Shown here: positions 8,365 to 31,751 of the stretch, one piece after another | Layout of the letters: each line of letters begins with the position of its first letter | How positions within the stretch are numbered: position 1 is the first letter of the stretch | DNA from: a virus | Length of the DNA: 64,000 nucleotides | Reading direction: 5' to 3' (one strand) | Virus record (IMG/VR): IMGVR_UViG_3300025299_000105 | Notes under the pieces: model-generated | What the model was told of the DNA's origin: nothing | Seen by the model: only the letters and a program-made list of their open reading frames with translations | The model's database searches: none | Made by a program: the position numbers and the translations under genes

Positions 8365-8407
8365 ATTCTTCGCGCGCGCGGCGTGTGGTGCGAACCCTAC
8401 TGGGTGG
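8365..8407 (-). promoter_or_regulatory. Late-promoter motif copy 1 plus -10
   Basis: CGAACCCTACTGGGTGG at 8391-8407; minus-strand -10 AAGAAT at 8365-8370. Confidence 0.7.
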
Positions 8408-8762
8408 CGCGCGGCATCACGCTGATGTCGAGATACGGGCCGTCGGCGCCCTTGTTCGTCAGGTGGATCGACCAGGACAGTCGCCCGTGTGGCTTCTTCG
8501 TGATGTGGCTGTCGGTTAGCAGGTGATCGAACTCGTGATGCACGTAGACGCCCTGCACCGCCGTCTTCATCTCATCGACCATAGGCCCCGGCTCGCCGGC
8601 CTCGGCAGTCCACGGCACTGCGATGAGATCGAAATCCCGAGCCATGCTGCCGTGCACGGCCAGCGCGTAGCCGTGCTTGCGGGCGATGACGACGAGTGCC
8701 GGGTAGAGCACCGCGTACATGGGCGGCGGCGCGGTCATTGCTGCAGGAGCGTCGAACGGCAC
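8397..8762 (-). CDS. Hypothetical protein with minimal nucleotidyltransferase-like motif
   Basis: LAVHGSMARDFDLIAV fits hGS-x-DxD. Confidence 0.6.
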   Translation of the reverse strand: MPFDAPAAMTAPPPMYAVLYPALVVIARKHGYALAVHGSMARDFDLIAVPWTAEAGEPGPMVDEMKTAVQGVYVHHEFDHLLTDSHITKKPHGRLSWSIHLTNKGADGPYLDISVMPRATQ

Positions 8763-9256
8763 GACGCATAGGCTGCGCTCATGGTCTCGATCTCGGTCAG
8801 GGCGTCTGCAAGGCGTCGAGCAACAACTTCCGGAAGTACCCCACTGGCCGCGCCGGCGTCTTCTGCACCAACTCCGGAGGCGGCGGCGGCACCACCTGGG
8901 GCGCTTCCACCACTGCGCCCGGCATCGCGGGTGCAGTCGCGCACCCTGACAACCACAGGAGCGCTGCGCTGGCGCTGATCGTCATCAGAGATCTGGGTGA
9001 CAGCTTTCTCATCGGTCTTCTCCTGCGCCTTGGCGCGTTTGTCGAGTTCGGCCTGCTTGGCGTCGCGTTCCTTGGTCCGCTGCTCGAGCAGCCTCTGGGC
9101 CGCGGTGTTCGTGGCCACCACGGCTGCGTTCTGGACCTGCAGCGCCAGGCCCGTGGTCTTGGCCAAGGCGCGGTAGTGCCACGTCGCGAGGCCCAGCACC
9201 ACCAGCAGTACAGCGAGCACGTAGATGACTGGCGTCTTGAGGTCGGGCACCATCAC
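8735..9256 (-). CDS. i-spanin (Rz-like)
   Basis: N-terminal TM helix, coiled coil, follows the endolysin. Confidence 0.8.
   Translation of the reverse strand: MMVPDLKTPVIYVLAVLLVVLGLATWHYRALAKTTGLALQVQNAAVVATNTAAQRLLEQRTKERDAKQAELDKRAKAQEKTDEKAVTQISDDDQRQRSAPVVVRVRDCTRDAGRSGGSAPGGAAAASGVGAEDAGAASGVLPEVVARRLADALTEIETMSAAYASCRSTLLQQ
8797..9012 (-). CDS. o-spanin lipoprotein (Rz1-like), embedded in Rz
   Basis: Lipobox LSGC, Pro-rich body, alternate frame inside the i-spanin. Confidence 0.8.
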   Translation of the reverse strand: MRKLSPRSLMTISASAALLWLSGCATAPAMPGAVVEAPQVVPPPPPELVQKTPARPVGYFRKLLLDALQTP

Positions 9257-9813
9257 AGCACCTCAGCACAGGTCTGCGCCTCGTCGGCGCGCCGGTTGGC
9301 GAGGCCGTGCACGAAGGTGCATTGCCGCTGGCCGGCCACCGTCTTGCAGGTGTACGACCACACCAGCGTGCCGTCGTCGCCGCGCGCGATGCGCTGGCAG
9401 CCCAGGGCCCACTGCCCGCGATTCCATGCCGCCATTGCACCGCTGCCGCATGTCGCCGATGGGCCGAGATTCCAGGCGTGCGATGTCGCCATGTCGAACA
9501 CCATCTGCGATGGCGGCCGCTTGAAGCACGTTGCCAGTCGCTGCTGCACCGCGACGACGGCAGAGCGCTCCTCGGCTTCGCACTTCTCATCGGTCCAGCG
9601 CTCGCCCACGACGATCGGCGTCTTGGTGACGTGGGGCGTGAGGCCGTTGCAGACCGTGGGAAGGCCGCCGGCCAGCCGGTCCGCGTAGACCACCAGCACG
9701 CGGGCCTTGCCGCTCTCCCACTTCTGGAGGAATCCCATTAGGAACGGGCTGCCGGCCACCAGCGTCGCGCCAGCGACGACGATGGTGCTGATGACTTTGG
9801 TCTTGGCGCTCAT
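9253..9813 (-). CDS. SAR-type endolysin (GH24 lysozyme)
   Basis: Weakly hydrophobic N-terminus, then WE...YADRLAGGLPTVCNG (Glu, Asp, Thr catalytic-type residues). Confidence 0.88.
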   Translation of the reverse strand: MSAKTKVISTIVVAGATLVAGSPFLMGFLQKWESGKARVLVVYADRLAGGLPTVCNGLTPHVTKTPIVVGERWTDEKCEAEERSAVVAVQQRLATCFKRPPSQMVFDMATSHAWNLGPSATCGSGAMAAWNRGQWALGCQRIARGDDGTLVWSYTCKTVAGQRQCTFVHGLANRRADEAQTCAEVL

Positions 9814-10127
9814 TTCGGGGTCGCTCCGGTGCGCCACGCGGTGTATGCCGCCGCGATGGCGACGCCAAGGCCCACGATGGCGGCCAGCGGCTTCGCCAGC
9901 TTGCCCAAGGCCTCGAGCACCTTGAAGGCGCCCTTGCCGTTCGCGAACCACTCGATCAGCTCGCCCACACTGGACTCGACGCGCTGGGTGGACTCGGTGT
10001 TCGCCTTGAGATTCGCCTCGATGCGGCTCATGCGGGCGTCGCCTTCATCGAGCCGCGCGTGGATGGCCACGATCTCGGGGTGTGGCTGGTCAGCTGGCGC
10101 GCCGTCCGTTGTGTTGGAGTCGGTCAT
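9810..10127 (-). CDS. Putative holin
   Basis: Coiled coil plus C-terminal TM helix, directly upstream of the endolysin. Confidence 0.6.
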   Translation of the reverse strand: MTDSNTTDGAPADQPHPEIVAIHARLDEGDARMSRIEANLKANTESTQRVESSVGELIEWFANGKGAFKVLEALGKLAKPLAAIVGLGVAIAAAYTAWRTGATPK

Positions 10128-10462
10128 CGTTCGACGATCCTCAAGAAAATGGACCGGTCATCGATCCGTGGCGGGGTGTTGTTGGTGGTGATGCGGCAGG
10201 TCACGCGCAGCTTGTTCGGGCCCGTCGCCAGCTTCGTGCCGCCGGAGAGCCAGACGGTGGCCGTGGTGCCGTCGAAGGCCTGGTCCACGATGGTCAGCGA
10301 GGGGTCAACAACGAACTCCGCGCTCGCGATCTGGTCGTCACCGTTCAGGGCAAGCCAAGCGCTCCAGTCGAAGGGGTAGTCGAGCACCGCATCGGGGTCT
10401 TTCTCGATCACGGAATCACCGTTCCGATCGATCTCGTAGGTGGTGGGCTTGGGCGTGGCCAT
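10124..10462 (-). CDS. Fibre-tail adaptor-like protein
   Basis: KDPDAVLDYPFDWSAWL...TVWLSGGT...RITT motif family, follows the fibre gene. Confidence 0.7.
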   Translation of the reverse strand: MATPKPTTYEIDRNGDSVIEKDPDAVLDYPFDWSAWLALNGDDQIASAEFVVDPSLTIVDQAFDGTTATVWLSGGTKLATGPNKLRVTCRITTNNTPPRIDDRSIFLRIVER

Positions 10463-10471
10463 GCTGGTCTT

Positions 10472-11914
10472 TCAGTCGGTGAAGGCGATGCGGCGGTCCT
10501 CGCCAACGACAGCCACGGCACGGCCTTCCGGTACTGCTGCGAAGGCTCGGTCCTCGGGGACGATGCCGAGTACACGGCGCTCGGCGCGCACATCGATCGT
10601 GCGCTCGTTGCGCTCAAAGATGTACTCGTGCCGTAGGCGGGCTGTCTGCGAGACTGCTGCGAGGACCTGGGCTGCGACGAAGGCGCGCACCGTGTCGGTC
10701 ACGATGCCGGTGGCGGTCTGGGAAACCCCCTGCAGCAACTGCGTTGCAGCGAATGCATCTCTCGCCTGAGCCACTGCACTCTGAGAAACGCCTCCCAAAG
10801 CTTGAGAAGCAGAGGCTTTGATGCCCGCATGGGCGACACTCAGTTGAGTGACGCCTGCGAGCGTATTTGCTGCACTTGTTTTGGCCGTGACCGTGGCGCC
10901 CGCAGCCTGAGAAACGCTCGCAAGAGTCTGAACTGCAGAAGCGGTTCGATCTGCGCCACCAGTGGTCCCGGTAGCGGACTGGGCGACGCTGAAGAGAGTT
11001 TGAGCCGCAGAGGCGCTGCCAGCTATGGAAGCACTCGCAGCCTGTCCAACAACGGCCAAGGTCTGGGCAGCAGCAGCAGACACTTTCACAGCGGCAGTTG
11101 TTGAAGAGGTCACTCCATCCAAAGTCTGGTCCGCAGCGAAGGACCGATCAGCGCCAGTCGAGACTGTTCCAGTCGCGATCTGCGAAACCCCGTCAAGCAC
11201 CTGCTGGAGCACGACAGGCGTATCGTCAAACGGGGCAGTTGGCGGTGTGAAGTTCGTGACGTATCGAGCGACGCCCTTGGTGATCCTCACCTCGTCAATG
11301 TTCCCGTTCCAGTCATACGTGGGATTGCGGGTATTGACCTGGGCTCCGATTGAGAATCGGAGGAGAGAGATTGTGTAGTCGCGGGTATCGGTTACGCTGG
11401 CTTTAAGCACGCCATTGACATAGATCGCCAGCGCAGTAAGGACGCGGCAAACCGCGACATGCACCCAATCTCCGGTGTTGATGGGAGCGCCACTCGCTCC
11501 TAGAACCAAAACGCCGCTGCCGCCGTCGGTGGACCACCATTGCGGATTGCCGGAGCTGTCCATATACAGCTCCCAGCAATTGATCTGGGAGGTCTGGTAG
11601 TAGTCGAACAGCACCCGGTCGGTGACAAGCGGCGACACCTTCACCCATGCTTCTACGGTGAAATCGCCGGTGCCAAACTGGAAGTCCGTGAGATTGCTCG
11701 TTGTCGAGATGTAGTCGCCAACCCCATCACACAGCATTGAGGCGCTGCCGAATTTCGGAGAGCCCGAGCTGAGCTTCGCGTCTCCGTTGACGGTGTAAGT
11801 CTTCCCCTTCTGATCCGTGAACGTTGTCGATCCGTCTGCACCGTCGAAGTGCAGATGCGTGACGACGCTGCCATACGCTGCGTCGCTGTTGCTCGGGATG
11901 TTGCGATCGGCCAC
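10472..11914 (-). CDS. LamG/concanavalin-domain tail fibre or receptor-binding protein with repeats
   Basis: LHFDG, DFTVEAWVK, WVHVAVCR, IYVNG, GNIDEVRITKGVARY, then about nine QTLxxVxQxA repeats. Confidence 0.85.
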   Translation of the reverse strand: MADRNIPSNSDAAYGSVVTHLHFDGADGSTTFTDQKGKTYTVNGDAKLSSGSPKFGSASMLCDGVGDYISTTSNLTDFQFGTGDFTVEAWVKVSPLVTDRVLFDYYQTSQINCWELYMDSSGNPQWWSTDGGSGVLVLGASGAPINTGDWVHVAVCRVLTALAIYVNGVLKASVTDTRDYTISLLRFSIGAQVNTRNPTYDWNGNIDEVRITKGVARYVTNFTPPTAPFDDTPVVLQQVLDGVSQIATGTVSTGADRSFAADQTLDGVTSSTTAAVKVSAAAAQTLAVVGQAASASIAGSASAAQTLFSVAQSATGTTGGADRTASAVQTLASVSQAAGATVTAKTSAANTLAGVTQLSVAHAGIKASASQALGGVSQSAVAQARDAFAATQLLQGVSQTATGIVTDTVRAFVAAQVLAAVSQTARLRHEYIFERNERTIDVRAERRVLGIVPEDRAFAAVPEGRAVAVVGEDRRIAFTD

Positions 11915-11926
11915 GGTTCCTCAGGC

Positions 11927-12331
11927 TCAGGGGTTGCCTTCGGTGATCGTCCAGCCAGTGATCTGCACGGACTGGCCCGACGCGATGCTGGTGTTGTCCA
12001 CCGTCATGTCGCCGCCGCCACCGGTTGCGGTCACGCTGCCCTGCATGTGGCACGTGGTGCCGGCGCTGTCCTTGATGCGGTAGTGGCCTGCGGTGCCGGT
12101 GCCCGAGGCGGTGGCGCTCAACGGCACACCGCTGAAGGTGAGAACGCCGCTGGCCTGCGTCGACCAGTCCGACGCCAAGGTGAACTCGGCAAGCAGCGTG
12201 CCGCTGTCGACCGCTGCGCAGTTAGCCGGCTGCGCGCCGGTGCGGATCTGCACCTTCGGGGTGGTGCCGATGGTGGTTTCGATCTGTGCGCTGCGCGCGT
12301 TGCGCAGCGTCGTGCCCATCTGGATGGTCAT
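11927..12331 (-). CDS. Virion structural protein of the fibre module
   Basis: AAGGAG SD before ATG at 12331; similar to 17912-18346. Confidence 0.7.
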   Translation of the reverse strand: MTIQMGTTLRNARSAQIETTIGTTPKVQIRTGAQPANCAAVDSGTLLAEFTLASDWSTQASGVLTFSGVPLSATASGTGTAGHYRIKDSAGTTCHMQGSVTATGGGGDMTVDNTSIASGQSVQITGWTITEGNP

Positions 12332-12353
12332 GGGAAGCTCCTTGAATGCCGAC

Positions 12354-12396
12354 ATGGTGTCGGCCGAAGAGGCCCCGCGCGAACCTTACTGGGGTG
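12354..12396 (-). promoter_or_regulatory. Late-promoter motif copy 2 plus -10
   Basis: CGAACCTTACTGGGGTG at 12380-12396; -10 CACCAT at 12354-12359. Confidence 0.7.
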
Positions 12397-12456
12397 CCAG
12401 CTAGACTTCTCGTTCAGCCGAGAGGCGCTTCCTCAACACTCTTCGAAAGACCCGAG

Positions 12457-12807
12457 ATGTCCGTGCTACAGCCCATGCAAGAATTCACTTTCCACTTCGC
12501 AGATGGCCGCGTGGCATTTGCCCACCTCTATCAACATCCGGACTTGAGTTGGTTTGCATCCCAGACGGAGCTACTTGCCGGCGACAGCGTCAGCGCAGGG
12601 CAGTTCTATGCGTCAGTTCCTTGCCCTCGCGGGGCCACGGCGGAACAAGCGTTCGAAATGCTCGTCCAGCGCGCTGTTGGCGGATCAACGGTGGCCGGAA
12701 CCACCCTGACCGCAATCGACAACCCGAACAACGATGAATTCGTGAAGATCGCTGCGCAACGCCAGCTCGCCCCAGGAGTTGAGATCCGGCGAAACGGGCA
12801 GGCCTGA
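12457..12807 (+). CDS. Accessory (moron) hypothetical protein
   Basis: Opposite strand inside the late region, 116 aa. Confidence 0.65.
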   Translation: MSVLQPMQEFTFHFADGRVAFAHLYQHPDLSWFASQTELLAGDSVSAGQFYASVPCPRGATAEQAFEMLVQRAVGGSTVAGTTLTAIDNPNNDEFVKIAAQRQLAPGVEIRRNGQA

Positions 12808-12847
12808 GTGGTCGCCAAGACTCGCCTCGCCCTCGAATCCCGCTGAA

Positions 12848-13882
12848 CTACAGCGAAGTCGAATCGCTGCCGCTGATGCTGGCGCCGGCGTTGATGCCGT
12901 TCAGCGAGGCTGCGGCGACCTGGGTGGTCGAGGTCAGGGCTGCGATGGCGGCCTGCACCCGGTCGCTCAGCGTCTGGTTCTTCGAACGCAGGTTCGCTTC
13001 GTTGCCGGACTGCTTGATCTGCGCGTCGGCGATCGCCAGGCGCACGCGCGGCTCCAGCGCAGCGCTCTCGGCTTGGTAGAGGGCCACCAGGTTGCGCGCC
13101 AGATCGCTGCGCACGCTCACCATCGCGGTGGCGAGGCCTGCGGCGACCTGATCGCCCTGCAGAAGCGTCCGGATGTACTCGCCGGCGCTGGCCACTGCCT
13201 TCATCCACATGTCCAGCGCTTGGCCGACCGCGAACCGAGCGTTCTCCAGCTCGGCGCGGAAGGCCTCGATGCTGATGTCGCGGCTCTGCTCGGCCAGCTT
13301 GTTGCGCATGTCCTGGCGGATGAGCTGCACCTGGTGCACGAGCGCGCCCGGCGGCAGCGGGAAGCCCCGGTTGGCGAAGGCCTGCATGGCATCGTTCTCG
13401 GCGCGCATCGCCTCGGTGTTGAGCCGGGCACGGCCGCGCTCGTAGATCTGCGCCTCCACCGCCGCATTCACGCCGGTGCCGCCGGTGGTCAGCGCGCGGT
13501 TGATCCATGCGATGGCGTTGTCGAAGTACGAGCGGTCCGGGAAGTAGGTCTGCAGGTAGTCGACGTAGCCCATCGTGATCTCGTCGTGGATCTCGGCGCG
13601 GGCGTCGTCGAAGATCGCTTTCGCGTCGGCCGGGTTGTTGTCCGGCAGCACGGGCTTGATCGGCATCACGTAGCTGGTGTCGAGGTCGACCAGCGGCACC
13701 TGAGGCGCCGGGTCGGTGATCTCAATGGCGCCATCAGCGCGCGCCGACGCGGCATTGAGCAGCAGCACGGCGTTGCGCCACTTGCCGTTCATGACCTGCG
13801 AGACGATGACCGGCGCACCGGCACCTCCGGTGCTGGGATCTGGCACGGAAACGAGGTCGCCAGGGTTGATAGGAGTCGTCAT
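12848..13882 (-). CDS. Putative virion/ejection protein
   Basis: 344 aa, Ala-rich and helical, within the tail operon. Confidence 0.6.
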   Translation of the reverse strand: MTTPINPGDLVSVPDPSTGGAGAPVIVSQVMNGKWRNAVLLLNAASARADGAIEITDPAPQVPLVDLDTSYVMPIKPVLPDNNPADAKAIFDDARAEIHDEITMGYVDYLQTYFPDRSYFDNAIAWINRALTTGGTGVNAAVEAQIYERGRARLNTEAMRAENDAMQAFANRGFPLPPGALVHQVQLIRQDMRNKLAEQSRDISIEAFRAELENARFAVGQALDMWMKAVASAGEYIRTLLQGDQVAAGLATAMVSVRSDLARNLVALYQAESAALEPRVRLAIADAQIKQSGNEANLRSKNQTLSDRVQAAIAALTSTTQVAAASLNGINAGASISGSDSTSL

Positions 13883-15699
13883 GCTCTGGTCTTTCTGGAG
13901 AGGTCGGCGACGATGAACTCGAGGCTGTCGATCTCGAAGTCGGCACCGTCCTGGTTGTAGAAAACGGGGATCAGGTAGTTAGTCTTCAGGCCTTTCCCGA
14001 GCTTGAAGCGGTGCTGTTGCAGCTCTTCCGAGTAGCCCTGCGCCTGGTACTCGAACGAGCCGGCCGGGCCGGAGACCTTGAGCACCAGCGGGGACTCCGA
14101 CGCGGCGCCGATGAAAACCTCAGCCACCGTCTTCTGCTGTGAGTTGCCGAAATCCAGCTTCCCGGGGCAGATCGCGGCCTGAATCGGAGCACCGGCATCG
14201 CTGTCGCCTTCCAGCAGGAACAGGCCGCCCAGCTTGGCGCCGTAGTAGCGGTCGCCGATGCGCGCGAAGCTGTTGAAGCCGTAGTTGGCGTAGCTGGTGC
14301 TGCCGTAGCCGGCCATGTTGACGGCGTGCACCTCCAGGTCGGAGCCGGGCGTGGTCAGCGGCACGTCGAAGGTGAAGCCGTCGCGGATGTCCACGATCTC
14401 GACACCGCCGGCGATGCTCATCGGGATGTCGAACCCGAAGGCGTCGCGGATGTCGGCGACGTCGATGCTGGTGCCCGTCATCGGCACATCGAACCCGAAG
14501 ATGTCGCGGGCGTCGGCCTGGTCTATCGCGGTCGCCAGCATCGGCACGTCGAACACGATGCCGTCGAGCAGGTAGCGCATGGTCGCCGACTCGACGCCGA
14601 GCGTGCCCACCGCGGCCGGCGCGATGCCAAGGATCTGGCCGCCGTCATGGTCGGACAGGAAGCCGCTCGGCGCCGGCGCAGCGGCCGTGCTGGTGAAGAC
14701 CTGCCCCGAGAGCATGTTCATGGCGCCCGCGGCGGCGGCCATGGTGCCGATGATCTTGTTGTTGGAGTCGATCACCGGCGTGCCGCCGTACATCGCGCCT
14801 TCCAGCGGCGGCATCTCGCCAGCGATCTGCGCGGTGTCGGCGTCGGCCAGGAAGCCAGTCAGCGCCGGCATGTTGGCGCGGATGCCGTTGCCCACGCCCA
14901 GGAAGCCCACGGCGGCCGGCATCTCGGTCACGAACTGGGCCGTAGTGCTGGTCTCGCTGAGCAGGCCCTGCGCGCCCGGCATGGTTCCGACGATGCCGCC
15001 CGAGCTGTAGACCGCGATGGAGGGCTCGTCGATGCTGTCGCCGGAGCTGAAGAGCGCCGCCGCCATGAAGAGGTCGGCGCCCGGCGGCACGGCCGAGGCC
15101 TCAGACGCGAAGGGCGTGCCGTTCTTGCGGTACGTGGCCAGGCCGCCGGCGGCGACATCCATCTGGAACTCGTCGCTGGAAAGGTACGAGGTCAGGAAGG
15201 TGCCCGTGAGCGACTTCACCGAGCCGGTGTTGAAAAGCAGGCCGTGCAGGATGTGCCCGTAGCTGGCCGGCGGCGCGCTGGCCTCGCGGGTGACGCCGAC
15301 CACCGCGCCCATGACGGCCTGCGGCACCTTGTAGGTGATGCGGGCCCCGCCGTGCGCCGCCTCGATGGAATGCGCGAAGGAGGTCCAGCCCTGCGGCGGC
15401 ACGTCGACGGCGAAGGCCGGCGAGCCAATCACCTCGGCCGTGGCCGGATGGAAGACCTCCACGGTGTAGGTGTACGGGGTCAGCGGCGACAGGTTCACCG
15501 GGTAGTTCGGATCCCAGACCGTGCTGGTGCGGCCCGTCACCGGGTCGGTCGTCGTGACCCAGGCGCCCTTCGAGGTATTCGGCGGCCCCACGCGCACGGC
15601 GGTGCGGGACTCGGTGCTCCAGTAGGCCGGGCGCGCCGGCTGGTACGGCACCTCGGGCACCGTGTAGCTGTAGCCGTTTCGGATCAGTTGGTTCGTCAT
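13879..15699 (-). CDS. Tail/virion structural protein
   Basis: 606 aa, operon context, four DxRDxFxFDxP-like repeats. Confidence 0.65.
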   Translation of the reverse strand: MTNQLIRNGYSYTVPEVPYQPARPAYWSTESRTAVRVGPPNTSKGAWVTTTDPVTGRTSTVWDPNYPVNLSPLTPYTYTVEVFHPATAEVIGSPAFAVDVPPQGWTSFAHSIEAAHGGARITYKVPQAVMGAVVGVTREASAPPASYGHILHGLLFNTGSVKSLTGTFLTSYLSSDEFQMDVAAGGLATYRKNGTPFASEASAVPPGADLFMAAALFSSGDSIDEPSIAVYSSGGIVGTMPGAQGLLSETSTTAQFVTEMPAAVGFLGVGNGIRANMPALTGFLADADTAQIAGEMPPLEGAMYGGTPVIDSNNKIIGTMAAAAGAMNMLSGQVFTSTAAAPAPSGFLSDHDGGQILGIAPAAVGTLGVESATMRYLLDGIVFDVPMLATAIDQADARDIFGFDVPMTGTSIDVADIRDAFGFDIPMSIAGGVEIVDIRDGFTFDVPLTTPGSDLEVHAVNMAGYGSTSYANYGFNSFARIGDRYYGAKLGGLFLLEGDSDAGAPIQAAICPGKLDFGNSQQKTVAEVFIGAASESPLVLKVSGPAGSFEYQAQGYSEELQQHRFKLGKGLKTNYLIPVFYNQDGADFEIDSLEFIVADLSRKTRA

Positions 15700-15709
15700 G
15701 GGCGAGGCC

Positions 15710-17245: not shown

Positions 17246-17907
17246 GCGACCTCGCGGGTGTTGACGAAGTTGGTCCAGAAATCAGGGGTTGCCGGCGGCG
17301 GGCCTGCGGTGTCGATGCGCATGTGCAGCACGGCACCGCCGTCGATCCCGGTGTTGGAGCGCTGGATGTCGATACTCGGGATCAGCTTGGCGACGGTCGG
17401 CGCCTGCGGGATGGTGCCGCGCAGCACGCCAGCGGTCCAGACCTCGACCTCGCCAGCGACCTGGTCGACGCGCATCTCGAAGGCGCAGACCGTGCCGACA
17501 CCGCCGGGCTGCGTCCAGTCCACGGTCTGGATGCTGCCGCTGATGCTGCACAGGAACTGCACGAAGTACTGCGAGCCGGAGCCTGGCGTCAGCGTAAGGC
17601 CGATGTAGTCGCCCGACGACCCGCTGCTGGACGTGAAGACCTTCAGCCGCAGGAAGTTCTGCGACGAGAACGCCGAGGCCGTGTTCTTGATCGAGCCGCT
17701 GAATGTGAAATCGTCCGTGGACAGGATGTCCGTGAGCAGGTGGATGCCCTCGTCGGCTGCGTTGGCCGACACCACGCAGGCGCCACCACCATCGAGCTCG
17801 CACTCTCCGGCCGGCGAAAGGCTCGCTCCCCAGGCGCCGCCGGTCGTGACGCGGCCCGCGATGGAGCCCGCCGCACCAACGAAGTCATCCTCGAAGAGCA
17901 GAGCCAT
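17242..17907 (-). CDS. Tail protein, beta-rich (lectin-like)
   Basis: 221 aa coupled ORF, FEDDF start, beta-strand-rich. Confidence 0.6.
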   Translation of the reverse strand: MALLFEDDFVGAAGSIAGRVTTGGAWGASLSPAGECELDGGGACVVSANAADEGIHLLTDILSTDDFTFSGSIKNTASAFSSQNFLRLKVFTSSSGSSGDYIGLTLTPGSGSQYFVQFLCSISGSIQTVDWTQPGGVGTVCAFEMRVDQVAGEVEVWTAGVLRGTIPQAPTVAKLIPSIDIQRSNTGIDGGAVLHMRIDTAGPPPATPDFWTNFVNTREVA

Positions 17908-17911
17908 GGCT

Positions 17912-18346: not shown

Positions 18347-18357
18347 GGCGGTTCCTT

Positions 18358-20103: not shown

Positions 20104-20146
20104 AGTGTTCCCGGCGCTCCCACATGCGTCGAACCTTAGTGGGTGG
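20104..20146 (-). promoter_or_regulatory. Late-promoter motif copy 3 plus -10
   Basis: CGAACCTTAGTGGGTGG at 20130-20146; -10 AACACT at 20104-20109. Confidence 0.7.
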
Positions 20147-20173
20147 TCCATCGCGCCCCGCGCAGGCGTGGGC

Positions 20174-20875: not shown

Positions 20876-20877
20876 GG

Positions 20878-21264: not shown

Positions 21265-21289
21265 GAGATGGTCCTTGAAGTTGAGGGAA

Positions 21290-22063: not shown

Positions 22064-22084
22064 CGGATTTCTCTCCTGTAGATG

Positions 22085-22112
22085 AAAAAAGGGGCGGACC
22101 GGAGCCCGCCCC
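22085..22112 (-). terminator. Rho-independent terminator after the capsid genes
   Basis: Minus strand GGGGCGG-8 nt loop-CCGCCCC followed by T6. Confidence 0.8.
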
Positions 22113-22136
22113 GAACGGGGGTCAAGGAGGAGTCGG

Positions 22137-22610: not shown

Positions 22611-22674
22611 GATGAGGCTCCTGATTCAGTTGATGGAGAGCGTCAGGAGGGCCAGCCTGGGCCGGCCCTGCCGA

Positions 22675-23955: not shown

Positions 23956-23981
23956 TCAAGACTCCGAAATGGCGGGATGGG

Positions 23982-25088
23982 TCACACCAGCTTTCGCATC
24001 AGGGCTTCGATCTGCGCGGGCGTCTTGCCCTCGAACTTCGCCATGAGGTCAAGCGGGCTCATCTCGGCCATCGCTGCGGCTTCGTCGTGGTGGGCTTGCG
24101 AGCCGGCCGGAACATCCGACAGGCTGGCAGGCGTCTTCGGCTTCACTGCGGCGACGACCTCTTCGGCCTTCTTCTGCGGGTCCACTGCCGGTGCCGCCGC
24201 AGGAGCTGCGACGGGTGCGGGTGCGGGGGCAGGCGCCGGCGCGGGCGCTGTGGCGGCTCGAGCGGCCTTGTAGGTGTCCAGCATCTCGACCACCTGCGAC
24301 GCGGTCCCCTTCTCCAGCACGGTCTGGTACGTCTGGCGCACCAGCGACGGCTGCGCGTTGAGCCATTGCTGGTACTCCGCGCTGTCGACGATGGAATCCG
24401 TGTCGGGGTGCTTCGTGTAGATGGTCCGGAAGTGCGCTTCGGCAGCCGTTTCGGCGGCTTGCCGCTTGACCGGCTCCAGCTCGGCCGTGACTTCGGACTT
24501 GAGCTTGCCCATCGCTTCCGCGACGAGCGCGTTCACGCCCTTTGCCACTGCCTCGTCGGAGTAGTCGCCGAACAGGCCATTCGACGGAGCCGGGGCTGAC
24601 GCAGGCTGTGCCGCCGGTGCAGAGGCCGGAGCCGGTGCACCCGAGGCGAGCTTTGCGCGCAGTTCCTCGATCTCCGCTTTGGCCAGACGCGCTTCCTCCC
24701 GCGCATCCACCAGCTTCTGGTAGGGGATGGTGTGCTTTCCATCCTTGGCTAGGATCACCGAGTCGGCGCCCTCGGCAGCCGGAGCTGCTGCGGGTGCCGG
24801 TGCCGGTGCCGGTGCCGGCGTCGGTGCTGGTGCTGGTGCTGCTGCCGGTGCCTCCACCGGCGCGGGAGCCGGTTCGGCCGCGGCAGGCGCGGGGGCTGGT
24901 GCAGCCGGAGCAGCTGCAGGTGCGTCGGTCGGTGCTTCGGTGCCGGCGGCGGGCGCGCCGGATTCCTCTGCACCAGGTGCAGCGGTATCGCCCTCGAGGC
25001 CGCCCGTCAGAAGGCGCGCCATCGCTTCCTCGCTCACGTTGCCGTCGGCATCCGCGTGCTTTTCCAAAAACTGCTCGATGTTTGCCAT
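23982..25088 (-). CDS. Scaffold protein
   Basis: Acidic and Pro/Ala-rich, KDGKHTIPYQKL, between portal and capsid genes. Confidence 0.75.
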   Translation of the reverse strand: MANIEQFLEKHADADGNVSEEAMARLLTGGLEGDTAAPGAEESGAPAAGTEAPTDAPAAAPAAPAPAPAAAEPAPAPVEAPAAAPAPAPTPAPAPAPAPAAAPAAEGADSVILAKDGKHTIPYQKLVDAREEARLAKAEIEELRAKLASGAPAPASAPAAQPASAPAPSNGLFGDYSDEAVAKGVNALVAEAMGKLKSEVTAELEPVKRQAAETAAEAHFRTIYTKHPDTDSIVDSAEYQQWLNAQPSLVRQTYQTVLEKGTASQVVEMLDTYKAARAATAPAPAPAPAPAPVAAPAAAPAVDPQKKAEEVVAAVKPKTPASLSDVPAGSQAHHDEAAAMAEMSPLDLMAKFEGKTPAQIEALMRKLV

Positions 25089-25171
25089 GTTCTCCAGTTC
25101 CTTGCCACATCTCGCCGTGGCCGCCAAAGGTCTTGGGTGGTGCTTCGCCGGGATGGCGTTGCTGGAGCGTG

Positions 25172-25214
25172 ATCGTGTCGAGGAAGGAACAGGCGGGCGA
25201 ACCCTAGTGGGGGG
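25172..25214 (-). promoter_or_regulatory. Late-promoter motif copy 4 plus -10
   Basis: CGAACCCTAGTGGGGGG at 25198-25214; -10 CACGAT at 25172-25177. Confidence 0.7.
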
Positions 25215-25257
25215 TGGGTTCGCCTACGATTGCGTGCGACAACCGCCTGGAGGGCCC

Positions 25258-25806
25258 ATGAACTTCTCACCCGCAACCACAGCAGCCTTGGCAACCTTGT
25301 TCGCAGCTGGGCTGGCAGCTACCGTCTCGCTTGTGGTGTCGGTACTCTCGAAAGAGCAGAAGACGTCTGAATTTCGCCAGCAGTGGATCGATGCCCTTCG
25401 GAATGACGTCGCGGAATGGCTGGCGGAAGTCGCCATCGTCTACGCGACGTTTGACAACTTGACTTCCTCCGGGCGCAAGCCGACCCTCGCTGAGACAGAG
25501 CAGCGGTATGAGAACTTCCTGCGGCTGCGCATGCTCCGCCTTCGGATAGACCTCCGGCTGAATCCAACGGAGCATGCAGAAATGACCCAAGCGATGAATC
25601 AGGTGCGCGACAGCATGAAGGCAAGCTCTGCCGAGAGGATCGTCGCGGCCGACGCCGTCCTCGCGGCGACACAGAAGGTGCTTAGGGCCGAGTGGCGCCG
25701 TGTGAAGCGCGGTGAACGCGCTTTCGTCCTGACGAAAATCATCGCCGGAGCAATGGTTTCCGCCGCCATCGTTGTGGCAACTGTGGTGGCTATCAGATCT
25801 CTTTAG
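25258..25806 (+). CDS. Accessory two-TM membrane protein (moron)
   Basis: TM helices at both termini, opposite strand between portal and scaffold. Confidence 0.75.
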   Translation: MNFSPATTAALATLFAAGLAATVSLVVSVLSKEQKTSEFRQQWIDALRNDVAEWLAEVAIVYATFDNLTSSGRKPTLAETEQRYENFLRLRMLRLRIDLRLNPTEHAEMTQAMNQVRDSMKASSAERIVAADAVLAATQKVLRAEWRRVKRGERAFVLTKIIAGAMVSAAIVVATVVAIRSL

Positions 25807-28109
25807 CCGACGGGCACATTGTCGGTCGTGCGCTGGGTTTCGATCCCGCGGCCGCTGCCATCCATCGGAGAGCCCGGCCCAGGCACAACGGGCGGCAACG
25901 CAGGACTGGTGTTCTCCCTGCTGCCTGGCGTGCCCGTGACGTCGTTGACAGCAGCGGGCGGCGGCAGCGCGCCGGGCCCGGGCAGCTGCGGATCGACGCC
26001 ACCAGCACTTGGCGGCCGGTACCCGGCAGCCTCGGCGACCGCGTCCGCCACCGGCGCCACAGCCGGATTCATGACGATGGTCGCACCGGTCTGGTTGGCC
26101 GAGTAGAGGCCCTCGACGTAGGTCTTGAAAGAGTCGGCCAGGATCTTTCCGATCTCGGCGTCCAACTTCTCCTTCGGGTACCGCATCGACAGCTCCTGCA
26201 GCTTCAGGTCGCGGGCGTCGGCCATGCGGGCCTGATTCACCGCCTCGTCGATGCGCTGCTGGATCTGGTCCGGCGTCATCTGCTTGGCGGCCTCGCGCAC
26301 GGCCTTGATGATGTCCTCGCGGTTCGGCAGGTCCATGAGCGCGATCAGGTACGGCATCGCGACCTGCTGGAACTGCGGCGGCATCGCCTTGAAGGCTTCC
26401 GACATCGCTGACAGCTGCTGGCTGCGGTAGCTCGGCGTGCTGGGCACATCGTTGAGGGCAACCTTCAACTTGGTGCGCTCGACATCGTTGTCGAGGTACG
26501 AGAAGCCGTCGGCGTCCTGCGTGGGCACATTGAGGCGCACATCGAACTCCGGCTTCAGCGGATCCCCCTTGACGCGCACCGTGGTTTCGCGGCCGATCAT
26601 GTCTTCGACGATCAGCGACAGCAGCAGGTCGCCGACTTCGGCGCGGCTGGTGGCGAAGTTGTCATTGATCTCGGCCAGGGCCTGCGTGCTCTGCTCGAGC
26701 TGCGTGGCCTCCTGCAGACCCGAGTTAGCACCGCTTTGCGCGCCCTGCAGGCTGGGCGAGATCCCGCTGACGCGCTGGATGCCGGCGCGCGAGTCCTGCA
26801 ACATCTGGTACTGCTGCTGGTTCAGTTGGAAGTCGCGCTCCACCTTGAAGGTGGCGCCCGGCTTGGCCATGTGCTCCTGGTTCAGGATGATGTCGGCGTC
26901 GACGCGCCCGATCTCACGGCGGAACTGCTCGTCGGTGCCCTTCACGGCGTCCTTGGTGCGGGTCGTGCGCACCGCGGCAAGGCCCCATCGCAGCTTGCTG
27001 TTCGTCGCGTTGACGTTGTCCTGCATGTACATCATGCCGCGCACCAGACCATACGGCACGCCGGTGCGGTCTTCCTTCTTCCCCCAGAACGGCACGTAGG
27101 GGAACTTCTGGTGCCGGTACCGCGAAGGCTCGTCCGACAGCCGGTGCGGGCCCATCCACATCGCCATACGCATCTTCGGCACGACGGCCCACTCCGGCAC
27201 CGTGGCGCCGATGGCCACGAACTGCACGTGCATCGGGTTTTGGCGGTCGTACTCGACGACGCGCCCGTCCGGCAGCTTCAGCACCAGCATGCGGTTCCAG
27301 CGCCGATACCAGACCTCGAAGAGGCAGACCCGCTTGCCCGTCATGTCGCGCCACTGCTGCTCCTCCACACTCCACCCGCGCTGATCGTCCCATGCGCTGA
27401 GCAGGTTGGTGGACGTGCCGCCCTCGGTGGTGCCCAGGCCCTCGTAGATCGGCCAGCCGCTGACCACCTGCCCGATGAGTTCCTTCTGACCAGGGAACAT
27501 CAGCTTCGCCTGCGCCGTCGGCGTCCAGCGGCGGCGGATCAGGTAGCGGGCATCGCTGAGATCGTCCTCGGTGGCCAGCATGTCCCACCAGATCTCGTTG
27601 CGGTGGATCGCCTTGCAGCGGTACGGGAACTTGAAGGGATCGGGGTTACGGCTGACCTCGACCCAGCCGATGCCCGCGGCGACCTGCGTCTTGAAAGCAT
27701 CGGAGCATGCCTTGTCGGCCTTGCTGTGGCGCTCTGCCTGGTTCAGCTTGTAGTTGAGCGCTGTCGCGACCTGGTCGCCGCTGTCGCCCTCTCCTTCACC
27801 GTCGGGCAGCACACGCCAATCCGCGCGCGTCTTCGCCTCCAGGCCGAGCACCGCATCGATGGCCGGGCCGATGAGAGGCTCGATGGCCGGCGGCATTCCG
27901 ATCTGCTGCTGGCGCTGCAGGATCTCGGAGCTGAGCTGGTTCCCGTCGTAGTATTCCATTTCCCGGTCGGCCTTGGCGCGCCAGGCCGGCTGTTCCTCGA
28001 CCTCGTGGAAGAAGTCTGTGAACTCCGAGAGCGTGAGCGCACCGGTGTTGAGATCGGTGTCGGGCGTGCTCGGGCTGGGGCCGTTGAGTGCGGTGGTCGG
28101 TTCAGTCAT
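25803..28109 (-). CDS. Portal protein (P22-like)
   Basis: About 768 aa after terL; WRAKADREMEYYDGNQ, FPYVPFWG, YGLVRGM. Confidence 0.9.
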   Translation of the reverse strand: MTEPTTALNGPSPSTPDTDLNTGALTLSEFTDFFHEVEEQPAWRAKADREMEYYDGNQLSSEILQRQQQIGMPPAIEPLIGPAIDAVLGLEAKTRADWRVLPDGEGEGDSGDQVATALNYKLNQAERHSKADKACSDAFKTQVAAGIGWVEVSRNPDPFKFPYRCKAIHRNEIWWDMLATEDDLSDARYLIRRRWTPTAQAKLMFPGQKELIGQVVSGWPIYEGLGTTEGGTSTNLLSAWDDQRGWSVEEQQWRDMTGKRVCLFEVWYRRWNRMLVLKLPDGRVVEYDRQNPMHVQFVAIGATVPEWAVVPKMRMAMWMGPHRLSDEPSRYRHQKFPYVPFWGKKEDRTGVPYGLVRGMMYMQDNVNATNSKLRWGLAAVRTTRTKDAVKGTDEQFRREIGRVDADIILNQEHMAKPGATFKVERDFQLNQQQYQMLQDSRAGIQRVSGISPSLQGAQSGANSGLQEATQLEQSTQALAEINDNFATSRAEVGDLLLSLIVEDMIGRETTVRVKGDPLKPEFDVRLNVPTQDADGFSYLDNDVERTKLKVALNDVPSTPSYRSQQLSAMSEAFKAMPPQFQQVAMPYLIALMDLPNREDIIKAVREAAKQMTPDQIQQRIDEAVNQARMADARDLKLQELSMRYPKEKLDAEIGKILADSFKTYVEGLYSANQTGATIVMNPAVAPVADAVAEAAGYRPPSAGGVDPQLPGPGALPPPAAVNDVTGTPGSRENTSPALPPVVPGPGSPMDGSGRGIETQRTTDNVPVG

Positions 28110-28117
28110 GGTGGCTC

Positions 28118-29653
28118 TCAATAGCGCCAGTCCGGCGCCTCACGTGGCGAGGTCTCCTGCAGGGCGACGACCTCGGGGATGTCAGAAAGGAAGGTTTGGG
28201 CGACGCTGTCTCCCTTGTCGGGAGAACGGCCGAGCTCTTCTCGGATCTCGTCCTTGTCGCGGATCAGGACTGCGGCGAAGCGGCCGAGTTGCACGACCTT
28301 GTAGCGAATGGCGCAGAGATCCGCGAGCAGCTCGTCGTCGGGCGGCAGAGCGACCGGATCCTCAGCGGTCGGGTCGAGCGCCTCGCGCAGCAGCCAGTAC
28401 ATCTCGGCGCGCTTGTTGCGAAAGCGCAGATTGCCGGTCTTGTCCATGGCGTCGCTCTTCTCCGAGCCGACTACAGGCACGCAGAGCACATTGATGCCCT
28501 TCAGGAAGTCGAGCACTGAGACGCCGACACCGATGGCGTCGATCGCGACCGGCGCACCGTTGCGGATCAGCGGGATCACGAAAGCAGCGCCGGTGGGCCC
28601 GTCCTTGGTGACGACCCCGGGCACCGTCACCAGCTCGTCGAACCAGCTGCCGTGACGGCGCGCCGCCGAGGACTTGTCGATGCCGCCGCGGGCGACGTCG
28701 TAGCCCACGACCGTCATCGGCCCCTTGTTGTCTTTCGGCTTCCAACGCGCCTGCGCCGCCTTGATCCACTCCGTGGGGATCAGCTGCCAGACCGGATCGG
28801 TGCGCCCGGCCATGAAGTCGCCGCGCAGCATCTGCGAGCGCAGCGGCTCCGGTAGCGCCTGCAGCGTGGCCTTGTAGCCTGTCAGGCTGAGGTAGAGGTT
28901 GTCGTCGACGCTGGAAGGGATGAAGGTCCGGCTCTTCGGCTTCATCAGCTCCTTGCCGACCATCACGGGCTCGGGCCCGGGGACCTCCTGGTCCTTGCCG
29001 TTGGTGTCCGTCACGAACCACCGCAACTCGCCCGACTTCGCGGGATTCGGGTGCTTCGGGTCGAGCCACGGCGCCCAGAACCGGATGACCCATTCGCCCT
29101 CGGAGCTGGTCGGCGGGTTGCCGGCGCAGATCACGCGCTGGCGCACCTTCGGGTTGTCGGTGCGCATCCAGCCGATGAGCGTGCGGAACTGCAGCTCCAG
29201 GAAGTGGGTGATCTCGTCGAAGAGCTTGGCGTCATGCGGCCGGCCCTGATACTTCATCCAGTCGTCGGCCTCGCGCACGCTGCCGAGCTCGAGCACGCGC
29301 TTGCCAGGCAGGCGCCAGACGCCGTCCTGGCTGTTGTAGCCCTTTCGGGTGCCGAGGATCTTGCCCATGCGCTCCTCGATGCCGACGAGCTGAACGGCCT
29401 CGCGCCGGAAGATGATGCTGTGTTCCTGCTCGGTGAGCGCTGCGCCGAGCAGCAGATCGGTCTTGCCGCCGCCCGCGGAGCCGCCATAGAACAGGATGTC
29501 GGCCTCGGACTGCAGCGCCGCCATCTGCGGCCCGACTTGCGGCATCCACAGCGGCAATCCCTCGGTGAGCAGCAGATCGAGCTCGGCGCGCTCGCCGTCC
29601 GAAAGGAACGGCATCAGCTTCACCAACTCCGGGACGTCGATGTCATGCGCCAT
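28118..29653 (-). CDS. terL: Terminase large subunit
   Basis: Walker A YGGSAGGGKT, Walker B FDEIT, AGNPP, nuclease GYDVARGG and SPDKGDS. Confidence 0.95.
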   Translation of the reverse strand: MAHDIDVPELVKLMPFLSDGERAELDLLLTEGLPLWMPQVGPQMAALQSEADILFYGGSAGGGKTDLLLGAALTEQEHSIIFRREAVQLVGIEERMGKILGTRKGYNSQDGVWRLPGKRVLELGSVREADDWMKYQGRPHDAKLFDEITHFLELQFRTLIGWMRTDNPKVRQRVICAGNPPTSSEGEWVIRFWAPWLDPKHPNPAKSGELRWFVTDTNGKDQEVPGPEPVMVGKELMKPKSRTFIPSSVDDNLYLSLTGYKATLQALPEPLRSQMLRGDFMAGRTDPVWQLIPTEWIKAAQARWKPKDNKGPMTVVGYDVARGGIDKSSAARRHGSWFDELVTVPGVVTKDGPTGAAFVIPLIRNGAPVAIDAIGVGVSVLDFLKGINVLCVPVVGSEKSDAMDKTGNLRFRNKRAEMYWLLREALDPTAEDPVALPPDDELLADLCAIRYKVVQLGRFAAVLIRDKDEIREELGRSPDKGDSVAQTFLSDIPEVVALQETSPREAPDWRY

Positions 29654-30290
29654 CGGCCGCCCTCTTCCGCGCGATCTCGAACAGCGCAGCCAGCCGGCTG
29701 GCACGCTCCGCGTCGGTCAGCTTGCTGACGATGCCGCCCTCGTCCGGCGCGATCTTGTCGATGCCGTAGGCCTCGCGCTCGCCCTTGCGCAACTTCTCAT
29801 CGATCTCGGTCAGCTGCTTCAGCAGTCCGACGCGGGCGGCGAGCGCCATCTGCGTCGGGGCCTCCTGGGATTCGGATGCGGCCTGGTCAGCCGTCGCTTT
29901 CCCTACGGGCTTCGCCGCGCTCTCCAGCTCGACCAGTTGGGCGTCTCGCAGCGCAGACAGCCTCGTCAGGCCGGCGCGGTGCGCGATCTGCACGCGATAG
30001 ATGGCGTTCGCGTTGGCGTCGATGACGTCCTTGTCGGGGATTCGGTTCGCATTGCGCACCTCAGTGCGAACCGCCTCATTGCGTACCAGTTCGTCGGCCT
30101 TGGCCTGAATGGCTGCGGAGAGGTCCCGAGACCAGTTCTCGCGGTTGGCGCGCTTGCGGATCGCTGCTTCGGAGAGACCATGCTCCCGGGCGATCTGGCG
30201 CACGCTTTTCACGCCGGCGCGGTAGTCGGCCTCGATGGTTGGCCAGTGGGCTGTCGGCTTGTCGGAATCTGGTTCGCGCGCGTCTGTCAT
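29643..30290 (-). CDS. terS: Terminase small subunit
   Basis: HTH WPTIEADYRAGVKSVRQIAREHGLSEAAIRKRANRENW, upstream of terL. Confidence 0.85.
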   Translation of the reverse strand: MTDAREPDSDKPTAHWPTIEADYRAGVKSVRQIAREHGLSEAAIRKRANRENWSRDLSAAIQAKADELVRNEAVRTEVRNANRIPDKDVIDANANAIYRVQIAHRAGLTRLSALRDAQLVELESAAKPVGKATADQAASESQEAPTQMALAARVGLLKQLTEIDEKLRKGEREAYGIDKIAPDEGGIVSKLTDAERASRLAALFEIARKRAADGA

Positions 30291-30298
30291 GGACCGGG

Positions 30299-30341
30299 AT
30301 GATTCCGGGTGCGCACGGCTCGTGCGAACCCTACCGGGGGG
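30299..30341 (-). promoter_or_regulatory. Late-promoter motif copy 5 plus -10
   Basis: CGAACCCTACCGGGGGG at 30325-30341; -10 AATCAT at 30299-30304. Confidence 0.7.
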
Positions 30342-30418
30342 ACAACGCAACTGCATTTACCCGACCATGCTGGGCAGAGCCGAAGTGGCAAACTTGAGAA
30401 AACTATCGAGGAGGGCCA

Positions 30419-31279
30419 ATGGCCACGTTTTCCCAGCGAGTCGGTCTAAAACCCTTAGAGAAAGCCATTCAACTGCAGGCTATAGACCAAGACCTGCGAA
30501 ATGCGCTTTGGAACGTCATGGACATCTACGCTTGGTCGGCGTACCGCCCGTATGACGGGTACCAATATGAGGACGCCACCGACAGGGTTGAGCGACTGGT
30601 GGTCGGGATCTTCCTAAGGCTATACAAGATGGCGCACGACGCCATGCCCAAACTCAAAGATGCGAAATACGGAGAGCAGAAGGCCTTCCCGTGGTTGCGC
30701 CAAGTGGTGATGAATGGCGAGTGGCACGAGGTCTACGACCTAGTCGACTTCATTGCCCGTGAGGCACACCCATCACTACAAAAAACACTCGTCCCGGCTT
30801 TCAACTCGGCTCTGACTCGAGAAAACGCAGCCTACCGGTTCGTCAGCGGTGAGTTGGTGGAAATCACCGAACGTTCCGAGATTGAAGCGATTGAGTCAGC
30901 CATCAGCAAGGGCTCACGAGACTCGAAGGCTCACCTGGAACGCGCACTACAACTGCTGGCCGATAGAAAAGCGCCGGACTATAGGAACTCAATCAAAGAG
31001 TCGATTTCGGCGGTGGAGAGTGTCTGCAAAGCGATCGCGGGAAATCCGGCAGCAACGCTGGGAGATGCCATGAAACAGCTCAAGAAGACCCGCACTGTGC
31101 ATCCCCTGCTGGAGCAGGCGTTGATCAAACTCTATGGATACACGAACGATGCTGGCGGCATTCGACACGCCCTGACCGAAGCCTCTGTCGACGTGACCAG
31201 CGAAGACGCCAGGTTCATGCTTGTGGTCTGCTCGAGTTTCTGTAGCTATCTTTGGGCTCTTTCGGCCACGTCGTCCTAA
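30419..31279 (+). CDS. AbiJ-NTD4-like domain protein with HEPN/Abi-like C-terminus (putative anti-phage moron)
   Basis: FSQRVG...LRNALWN, YDLVDFI, NSIKESISAVE, LYGYTNDAGGIRH (RH motif); visibly more AT-rich; opposite strand. Confidence 0.75.
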   Translation: MATFSQRVGLKPLEKAIQLQAIDQDLRNALWNVMDIYAWSAYRPYDGYQYEDATDRVERLVVGIFLRLYKMAHDAMPKLKDAKYGEQKAFPWLRQVVMNGEWHEVYDLVDFIAREAHPSLQKTLVPAFNSALTRENAAYRFVSGELVEITERSEIEAIESAISKGSRDSKAHLERALQLLADRKAPDYRNSIKESISAVESVCKAIAGNPAATLGDAMKQLKKTRTVHPLLEQALIKLYGYTNDAGGIRHALTEASVDVTSEDARFMLVVCSSFCSYLWALSATSS

Positions 31280-31357
31280 GAATTCTGGGCACAAGCCGAA
31301 TGTGCCGGTTGCCTCCGGCGCTGCTCTCGCGGCAGCGGCTTCAGCCCATAGGGCGAA

Positions 31358-31642
31358 TCAGGTCGACGGGCACATACGCCAGCCCGGCATCATGCGGGGG
31401 CGTTCCCGCTTGGCCAAGCGCAGGGCGTAGGCACAGAACTGCAGCAGTTCGACCGGTCGCGCCACCAGCTGCAGTGCCGGCTGTTCGAACGCGGCCGGCA
31501 CGCTGGCCACGAAGTCGCAGGTGAAGCGGTAGACCGCAGTGCAGACCGTGGTGACGCGATCGACCACGGCGGCGGCACCGCTGGCCATTACCGCCAGCGC
31601 GGCGACAGCGAGATGGAGGAAGCGGGATCGGGAGAAGTGCAT
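31358..31642 (-). CDS. Phage hypothetical protein ending KRERP...WRMCPST
   Basis: GAGGA SD, 94 aa, behind a late-motif promoter. Confidence 0.7.
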   Translation of the reverse strand: MHFSRSRFLHLAVAALAVMASGAAAVVDRVTTVCTAVYRFTCDFVASVPAAFEQPALQLVARPVELLQFCAYALRLAKRERPRMMPGWRMCPST

Positions 31643-31708
31643 GGGAGTCCTCGAAGGTTGATGCCGCGGCTACCGGCGGGAGCCCCTTGCCATGACGGGG
31701 ACGGCCGC

Positions 31709-31751
31709 ATCTTCTGACCGCCCCGCTGGACGGGCCAACCCTACTGGGGTG
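31709..31751 (-). promoter_or_regulatory. Late-promoter motif copy 6 plus -10
   Basis: CCAACCCTACTGGGGTG at 31735-31751; -10 GAAGAT at 31709-31714. Confidence 0.7.

Follow-up and report, generated by a model that had tools for sequence, protein, structure and literature searches.

Dispersed candidate late promoters with a conserved bipartite element in a lambdoid phage and its relatives

Introduction

How does a lambdoid phage with no recognisable Q antiterminator switch on its late genes? The question is raised by IMG/VR virus record IMGVR_UViG_3300025299_000105, from which 64,000 nucleotides—here termed the window and numbered from its first letter—were analysed. A sequence-only reading of this DNA had drawn attention to six copies of a 17-bp motif between positions 8,365 and 31,751, each followed at a fixed distance by a hexamer resembling a -10 element, and had taken them for activator-dependent sigma70 promoters of the late genes. 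Here, we report that the motif is one half of a bipartite element conserved in distantly related phages, that these elements are very probably late promoters, and that a 169-residue winged-helix protein encoded beside them is a likely activator.

The window covers nearly all of the 64,007-bp record, which is rated 100% complete and represents an entire phage genome, recovered from a rhizosphere metagenome, as opposed to a prophage inside a host contig. No RNA run contains the phage. The phage is temperate and lambdoid in layout, with a CI-like repressor gene (43749-44465, plus strand), a Cro-like gene and a minus-strand early operon encoding a helicase/methylase, an O-like initiator, DnaB, RusA and a NinB-like protein. 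Late genes come next, for the small terminase (TerS), TerL, portal, major head protein, Hc3-like connector, structural proteins, a fibre-like protein, endolysin and a tape-measure-like protein. The host is probably Variovorax: homologues of the candidate regulator described below are annotated in Variovorax genomes, and a 98% identical copy lies on a contig of Variovorax sp. CAN15.

Six motif copies in the phage genome

A pattern scan of the window with CSAACCYTASYGGGKKG returned six exact matches, all on the plus strand (first copy at 8391, last at 31735; all positions in Table 1), against none in 100 dinucleotide shuffles; these six are all the copies in the whole virus record. When up to three mismatches were allowed, every other match to the core carried at least two, and their total was near that expected by chance. 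Read on the minus strand, each copy takes the form CMMCCCRSTARGGTTSG and is followed by 20 nt and then a hexamer, a distance equal to the 22 nt that had been counted from AACC. The hexamers, in copy order from 8391 to 31735, are AAGAAT, CACCAT, AACACT, CACGAT, AATCAT and GAAGAT; we estimate from base composition that the A and T of nAnnnT would fall at one common offset in six of six copies with a probability of about 1e-8.

Each of the six copies stands upstream of late genes on the minus strand, and the modules behind them encode, in the same order, tape-measure-like/ejection functions, fibre and endolysin, connector and tail, scaffold and capsid, terminase, and a 94-residue protein. Number, single orientation, spacing and placement of the copies were therefore as first described. 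The partial dyad ACCY-N4-GGGK attributed to the motif fared less well: some dyad exists, confined to CCC-N4-GGG, and it is weak.

The late region scanned for other signals (12100-32000) holds no sigma70 consensus promoter, and its only strong terminator follows the capsid gene. That terminator-like hairpin (22091-22112, minus strand; 9 bp, 8 of them GC, then TTTTTT) stands just past gene 22137-22610, which directly follows the major head gene, and is not itself followed by a box; it may act by attenuation, raising expression of the head gene relative to the genes downstream.

Conservation of a bipartite element in other phages

Scanning IMG/VR with the exact pattern recovered several contigs of 40-60 kb with multiple matches. 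Five relatives (G001-G005) carry three to seven copies each, in every case on one strand, and have few genes in common with the window outside the structural ones, most matches falling below 35% identity. A gap-free alignment of 30 sites gave the consensus CCCCCAGTAGGGTTCG, 17 nt, CGGAACACT, about 7 nt and cAT; on the gene strand the element can be summarised as CCCC-N2-TAGGGTTCG, 17 nt, cGGaAcacT, 7-8 nt, cAT.

To assess the downstream half, sites were selected solely on the upstream box, with no more than one mismatch tolerated over 13 fixed positions. The window, G001-G005, 37 additional loci and three isolated phages were covered and yielded 63 unique sites, with about 35 phage and prophage sequences besides the window represented. 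Spacing between box and -10 element is free of indels across the set, and 63/63 sites lie on the same strand as the regulator gene. Counting promoter positions from the predicted start point, as throughout, A at +22 (-11) is found in 60/63 sites, T at +26 (-7) in 61/63 and G at +19 (-14) in 52/63. With the hexamer set at -13 to -8, the box occupies about -50 to -34, TTCGNN stands at the -35 position instead of TTGACA, and the G falls at -14 or -15.

Isolated phages show the same arrangement. In LKA5, boxes precede TerS, the scaffold gene and two tail genes; F116 has boxes ahead of late genes, starting at about 22726, 28679 and 45729, and encodes a homologue of the candidate regulator, p37, at 22231-22725. 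Boxes also lie ahead of late genes in Acidovorax phage AP1 and Shewanella phage Y11, the latter keeping CCCCTGTAAGGTTCG despite a GC content of 46%. Within the family the box varies between CCCCNSTAGGG and CCNGCATAGGG, and in distant members (P0150, P0178 and a Paracidovorax citrulli prophage) it reads CC-N-GCATAGGGTT, spacing and -10 element being unchanged. Promoter annotations in the LKA5 record come from ab initio prediction and fall at positions other than the box sites.

Four host genomes of 4.8-7.2 Mb, complete or draft (Variovorax sp. CAN15, V. guangxiensis, Xenophilus and Paracidovorax citrulli), were searched with the relaxed core CCCNSTARGGTTSG. Frequent hits at random host positions would have told against the sequence-only reading; the core was found only inside a prophage beside the regulator gene, while a reversed control pattern gave 0-2 matches per genome. 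Its absence elsewhere in these genomes argues against a host regulon. As that reading had also supposed, no description of the motif emerged from a full-text literature search, which included F116 and Hollowayvirus promoters and the phiC725A paper.

Two other interpretations of the conserved bases were discarded: GGTTCG resembles a tRNA T-loop, without continuing as AATCC, and if GGAAC is read as the -35 element of an extracytoplasmic-function-type promoter, nothing is conserved 16-17 nt downstream.

Box-led units also differ in their surroundings. The fibre/lysis cassette led by a box (12380-8397 in the window) follows the tail genes in the window and stands directly after the portal gene in G005 (L078/L079, 19829-24659), so promoter-led cassettes seem to move as units between mosaic relatives. 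At three places in relatives of lower GC content, an intrinsic terminator (GC stem and T-run) ends a few nucleotides before a box (G001 26063-26102; G002 43800-43839 and 57082-57121). Late units are insulated by terminators at those sites, and the window has no such terminator except that at 22091-22112.

A candidate activator encoded beside the first box

When the six genomes were compared all against all, a single non-structural family proved common to G001-G005: a protein of 165-200 residues whose gene lies just upstream of the first box. A tblastn search placed the window orthologue, 59% identical to the G005 protein, at 32140-32649 (minus strand), where a Shine-Dalgarno sequence precedes an ATG at 32649. 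The resulting 169-residue protein matches the phrog_8117 profile (E 2e-37, residues 15-140), a family whose function is not annotated, and a profile search gathered 552 clusters (50% identity) at E <= 1e-3. The protein has no Pfam match above cut-off and no NCBIfam family, and a sequence profile search of the PDB gave nothing below E 0.2, no Mor entry and no solved relative.

An AlphaFold model of the protein (mean predicted local distance difference test score 80.6) has three parts: an N-terminal winged helix (residues 13-70), three beta strands (80-101) and a long C-terminal helix (103-158). The winged helix is DtxR/IdeR-like, with a Foldseek root-mean-square deviation of 1.4-1.6 Å over about 61 residues and, by VIA-align, Z 10.9 and 1.7 Å over 64 residues. 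The beta unit and C-terminal helix had no named structural match in Foldseek searches of the PDB, the wide VIA-align search, AFDB clusters or BFVD, where the generic winged helix alone was recognised. The most conserved residues (T32, R33, T40, G41, D48, D49 and G66) lie in the helix-turn-helix and wing. Prediction of a dimer scored 0.32 against a mark of 0.42, a result that speaks neither way on oligomerisation.

Protein and box occur together in every complete relative examined. Among IMG/VR loci with a homologue, about 27/31 have a box; in each of these it shares the strand of the gene and lies downstream, 4 nt to a few kilobases past the stop codon. The pairing holds in F116, LKA5, AP1 and Y11 and in the distant members P0150 and P0178. 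In the reverse direction, 2/5 further motif-bearing contigs encode the protein; the three without it (G006, G008 and G010) are incomplete records, two with a single match and G006 with two, and by a rough estimate chance alone could yield tens of matches in a collection of the size of IMG/VR. Comparison of the recognition helix with the box variants revealed no clear pattern of covariation.

Two candidate identifications for this locus were rejected. A 407-residue open reading frame (31766-32989) is spurious as judged by codon-position GC, the real genes being 32140-32649 and 31766-32083. The label AbiEi antitoxin, attached automatically to some homologues, is contradicted by an AbiEi_4 score of 14.4 bits against a cut-off of 25 and by the neighbours, which are NinB/NinG-type and terminase genes, not an AbiEii toxin gene. 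The 105-residue product of gene 31766-32083 (minus strand), between the regulator gene and the first late promoter (P1), has neither a homologue in G001-G005 nor a family match.

Predicted start points, leaderless mRNAs and a hairpin

At 34/63 sites, an ATG that opens a reading frame of at least 60 codons lies 7-9 nt past the T of the -10 element, which suggests leaderless mRNAs for about half of the promoters. In the window this applies to the TerS and connector genes; in the remaining four units a leader with a Shine-Dalgarno sequence precedes the first gene. Leadered sites retain CAT, CATT or CATC at the corresponding position, which fits a transcription start at that A. In an unrelated contig (L124), the database gene call puts the TerS start exactly at the predicted ATG.

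Some annotated starts disagree with these positions. The TerS genes of F116 (L125, record 22776-22851) and LKA5 (L007, 24158-24357) have their predicted leaderless ATG in the same frame and farther upstream than the annotated start, 25 codons farther in F116, and the TerS genes of F116-like phages are probably annotated too short. In the window, the first in-frame ATGs of two late reading frames (8366 and 12355) overlap -10 hexamers (AAGAATG and CACCATG); the probable starts are therefore 8339 and 12331, both of which follow a Shine-Dalgarno sequence.

At many leaderless sites the -10 element lies within a hairpin loop; the stem is 5-11 bp long, and its 3′ arm either stops 0-4 nt short of the ATG or takes it in. 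A stem of 5 bp or more is present at 26/35 leaderless versus 8/45 leadered sites, and mean folding energy of the 24 nt is -9.4 versus -3.7 kcal/mol (Mann-Whitney p 5e-6, a value that overstates the case because related phages are non-independent samples). The hairpins have 21 distinct stem sequences, so pairing has been kept through changes on both arms.

Discussion

We are confident that the six motifs are late promoters. That the 169-residue protein activates them, in the full scheme set out next, we consider probable, with less assurance; as judged from the sequence comparisons, class-II activator-dependent sigma70 promoters would be the best reading. The box CCCC-N2-TAGGGTTCG (16-17 bp, about -50 to -34) would take the place of a proper -35 element and be joined, by a spacer of exactly 17 nt and non-conserved sequence, to a weak sigma70 -10 element, G(-14)...aAcacT, that retains A-11 and T-7. 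Transcription would start 7-9 nt beyond the -10 element, often at the A of the first gene's ATG. The 169-residue protein, expressed from the early rightward operon, would bind the box and recruit or reposition host sigma70 RNA polymerase (class-II activation), and the terminase, head, connector/tail, fibre/lysis and ejection modules would be switched on together without Q-type antitermination. At leaderless sites, the hairpin round the -10 element would form only in read-through RNA and may confine translation of the first gene to transcripts begun at the late promoter. All computational tests agree with promoters that depend on an activator, with the site at about -50 to -34, close to the -35 to -50 originally suggested for an activator.

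Several points weigh against this account. The link between protein and box is drawn entirely from co-occurrence and position. The box core TAGGGTT is almost invariant while the proteins diverge to 20-30% identity, and this, with the lack of clear covariation, suggests that GGTTCG (-39 to -34) may be read by a conserved host component such as sigma70 region 4 instead of the phage protein. Strong asymmetry of the box is also uncommon for winged-helix proteins that bind as dimers. With no terminator between the early operon and P1, some late expression could be read-through. The sites are not all evolutionarily independent and, in the window, only P4 has a strong hairpin (-14.8 kcal/mol).

Among known late-control systems, class-II activation by Mu C has a matching layout. 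Mu has four late promoters with a -10 element and no -35 element; their -35 region is overlapped by a 16-bp C site whose centre is at -43.5 (PMC2582627). On the polymerase, the activator touches region 4 of sigma70, the alpha C-terminal domain and the beta flap (bioRxiv 10.1101/2025.05.02.651988). Like the Mu promoters (with C: Plys, PI, PP, Pmom; with Mor: Pm), those described here are several and dispersed, with a recognisable -10 element, no proper -35 element and a putative activator site over the -35 region, in our case centred near -42. Counted from the predicted start, they show the Mor/C promoter layout of a -10 element, no -35 element and a site of about 16 bp near -43. Mu uses the host sigma70 holoenzyme, and by analogy we propose the same for this phage. 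The activators themselves differ: six-frame searches of the whole phage with the Mor/C family PF08765 gave no match at E <= 0.1, and where Mor and C have an N-terminal dimerisation domain and a C-terminal helix-turn-helix, the present candidate begins with a winged helix, followed by a beta unit and a C-terminal helix. With its different fold and domain order, the system appears to work like that of Mu C while standing outside the Mor/C family. Other differences are that our box is strongly asymmetric rather than a clear dyad, and that this phage is lambdoid (CI/Cro, O, DnaB, NinB, RusA), not transposable.

Lambda Q and phage 82 Q, which act at PR', are encoded at the same map position as our candidate—the end of the early rightward operon, past Nin-type genes and before terminase. 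Lambda relies on one constitutive promoter with read-through; here there are six dispersed promoter-like elements, and the layout of a single late promoter with a Q-read terminator is absent, the sole strong terminator in 12100-32000 being that after the capsid gene. Six-frame searches of the phage with the Q families PF06530 and PF03589 gave no match, in keeping with the initial impression that no Q homologue is present.

P2 Ogr and P4 Delta are small phage activators that serve several late operons through sites upstream of the -35 region and host sigma70 RNA polymerase. The scheme proposed here likewise has a small phage activator serving several late operons with host sigma70. Ogr is a zinc-finger protein, and its family PF04606 has no match in this phage at E <= 0.1; P2 sites are TGT-N12-ACA dyads near -55, different from our box in both sequence and position.

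The best-surviving alternative, which we consider unlikely, keeps the late promoters and gives the box another reader, which could be a transcription factor or alternative sigma of the host, or a phage sigma-like factor that escaped detection and recognises both halves. It would accommodate a core that hardly varies among phages of Variovorax, Pseudomonas, Acidovorax and Shewanella even as the candidate activator falls to 20-30% identity, and a conserved cGGaAcacT that is more specific than a merely weak -10 element. Outside the prophages, though, the four host genomes lack the box, which argues against its belonging to a host regulon. For a phage sigma, six-frame searches found no region 2 (PF04542), and the sole region-4-like match (PF08281, 14.6 bits) is below cut-off and lies inside the small terminase gene; about 31 bp from box centre to -10 element is, we infer, too long for one sigma to read both halves. 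Nor do the six genomes have a second non-structural protein in common.

It is much less probable that the repeats are primarily linkers at module boundaries that promote recombination, or sites for some other DNA transaction. The boxes do sit at module borders of highly mosaic genomes, and the fibre/lysis cassette differs in position between G005 and the window. Such a role would leave unexplained why the boxes face one way relative to the genes, why a fixed 17 nt separates them from the A-11/T-7 hexamer, why CAT/ATG is conserved 7-9 nt downstream and why all sites are located downstream of the regulator gene; 17 bp is, moreover, short for homologous exchange. Recombination could nevertheless be a role secondary to promoter function. 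Least probable of all is that the element acts in RNA, as a processing, put-like antitermination or translation signal within a long late transcript: the hairpin round the -10 element does adjoin the start codon in many copies and shows compensatory stem changes, but it is absent from most leadered sites and from 4/6 window copies, the self-complementary arm of the box is only 3 bp, the 17-nt spacer is conserved neither in sequence nor in pairing, and conservation tracks DNA positions typical of -35 and -10 elements.

If late promoters activated by the 169-residue protein are indeed what the elements represent, they would explain how late genes are switched on in a large group of temperate phages without Q, including the generalised transducing phage F116 and its Pseudomonas aeruginosa relatives, and would give a function to a family annotated as hypothetical or, wrongly, as AbiEi antitoxin. 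The box would serve as a precise and easily scanned marker for finding late operons, correcting start codons (for example, of the F116 and LKA5 small terminase genes) and recognising this class of prophage, and the pairing of leaderless start and hairpin points to a way of tying translation to promoter choice. F116-like phages propagate on P. aeruginosa PAO1. More tentatively, and with rather less confidence than in the window itself, we suggest that phrog_8117 (F116 gp37) is a new and widespread family of late activators (at least 552 clusters at 50% identity) whose members, in lambdoid phages infecting Beta- and Gammaproteobacteria, read a near-universal box CCCC-N2-TAGGGTTCG at -42, with leaderless, hairpin-nested promoters, and that the first gene of each late operon might be translated only from late-promoter transcripts.

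Features of the late region

Table 1. Candidate late promoters, the units behind them and the putative activator gene in the window.
Feature	Position	Strand	Remarks
Candidate late activator, 169 aa, phrog_8117	32140..32649	-	last-but-one gene of early rightward operon
P1 putative activator box	31735..31751	-	CACCCCAGTAGGGTTGG on minus strand; 14 nt past stop of gene 31766-32083
P1 -10-like hexamer GAAGAT	31709..31714	-	predicted to drive 94-aa gene 31358-31642; leader and Shine-Dalgarno sequence
P2 putative activator box	30325..30341	-	CCCCCCGGTAGGGTTCG
P2 -10-like hexamer AATCAT	30299..30304	-	small-terminase ATG 30290, 8 nt downstream; leaderless mRNA predicted
P2 unit	TerS 29643-30290, TerL 28118-29704, portal 25803-28121	-	
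P3 putative activator box	25198..25214	-	CCCCCCACTAGGGTTCG
P3 -10-like hexamer CACGAT	25172..25177	-	
P3 unit	353-aa gene 24049-25110, major head protein 22675-23955	-	continues to 20174
P4 putative activator box	20130..20146	-	CCACCCACTAAGGTTCG
P4 -10-like hexamer AACACT	20104..20109	-	in loop of 7-bp hairpin (GCCGGGA/TCCCGGC) ending 1 nt before ATG 20096
P4 first gene, connector (Hc3-like)	18855-20096	-	leaderless mRNA predicted
P5 putative activator box	12380..12396	-	CACCCCAGTAAGGTTCG
P5 -10-like hexamer CACCAT	12354..12359	-	
P5 unit	structural gene 11927-12331, fibre-like 10472-11914, endolysin 9253-9951	-	structural gene start 12331, after AAGGAG
P6 putative activator box	8391..8407	-	CCACCCAGTAGGGTTCG; overlaps stop codon of gene 8397-8762
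P6 -10-like hexamer AAGAAT	8365..8370	-	
P6 unit	~900-aa tape-measure/ejection-like gene 5634-8339, gene 3956-5629	-	likely start of first gene 8339

One gene of the late region lies on the opposite strand, between P1 and P2 (30419-31279, plus strand). Its 286-residue product has an AbiJ_NTD4 domain (E 5e-28), and its third-position GC is 0.66, against 0.83-0.91 in six neighbouring genes checked; it is probably a defence moron.

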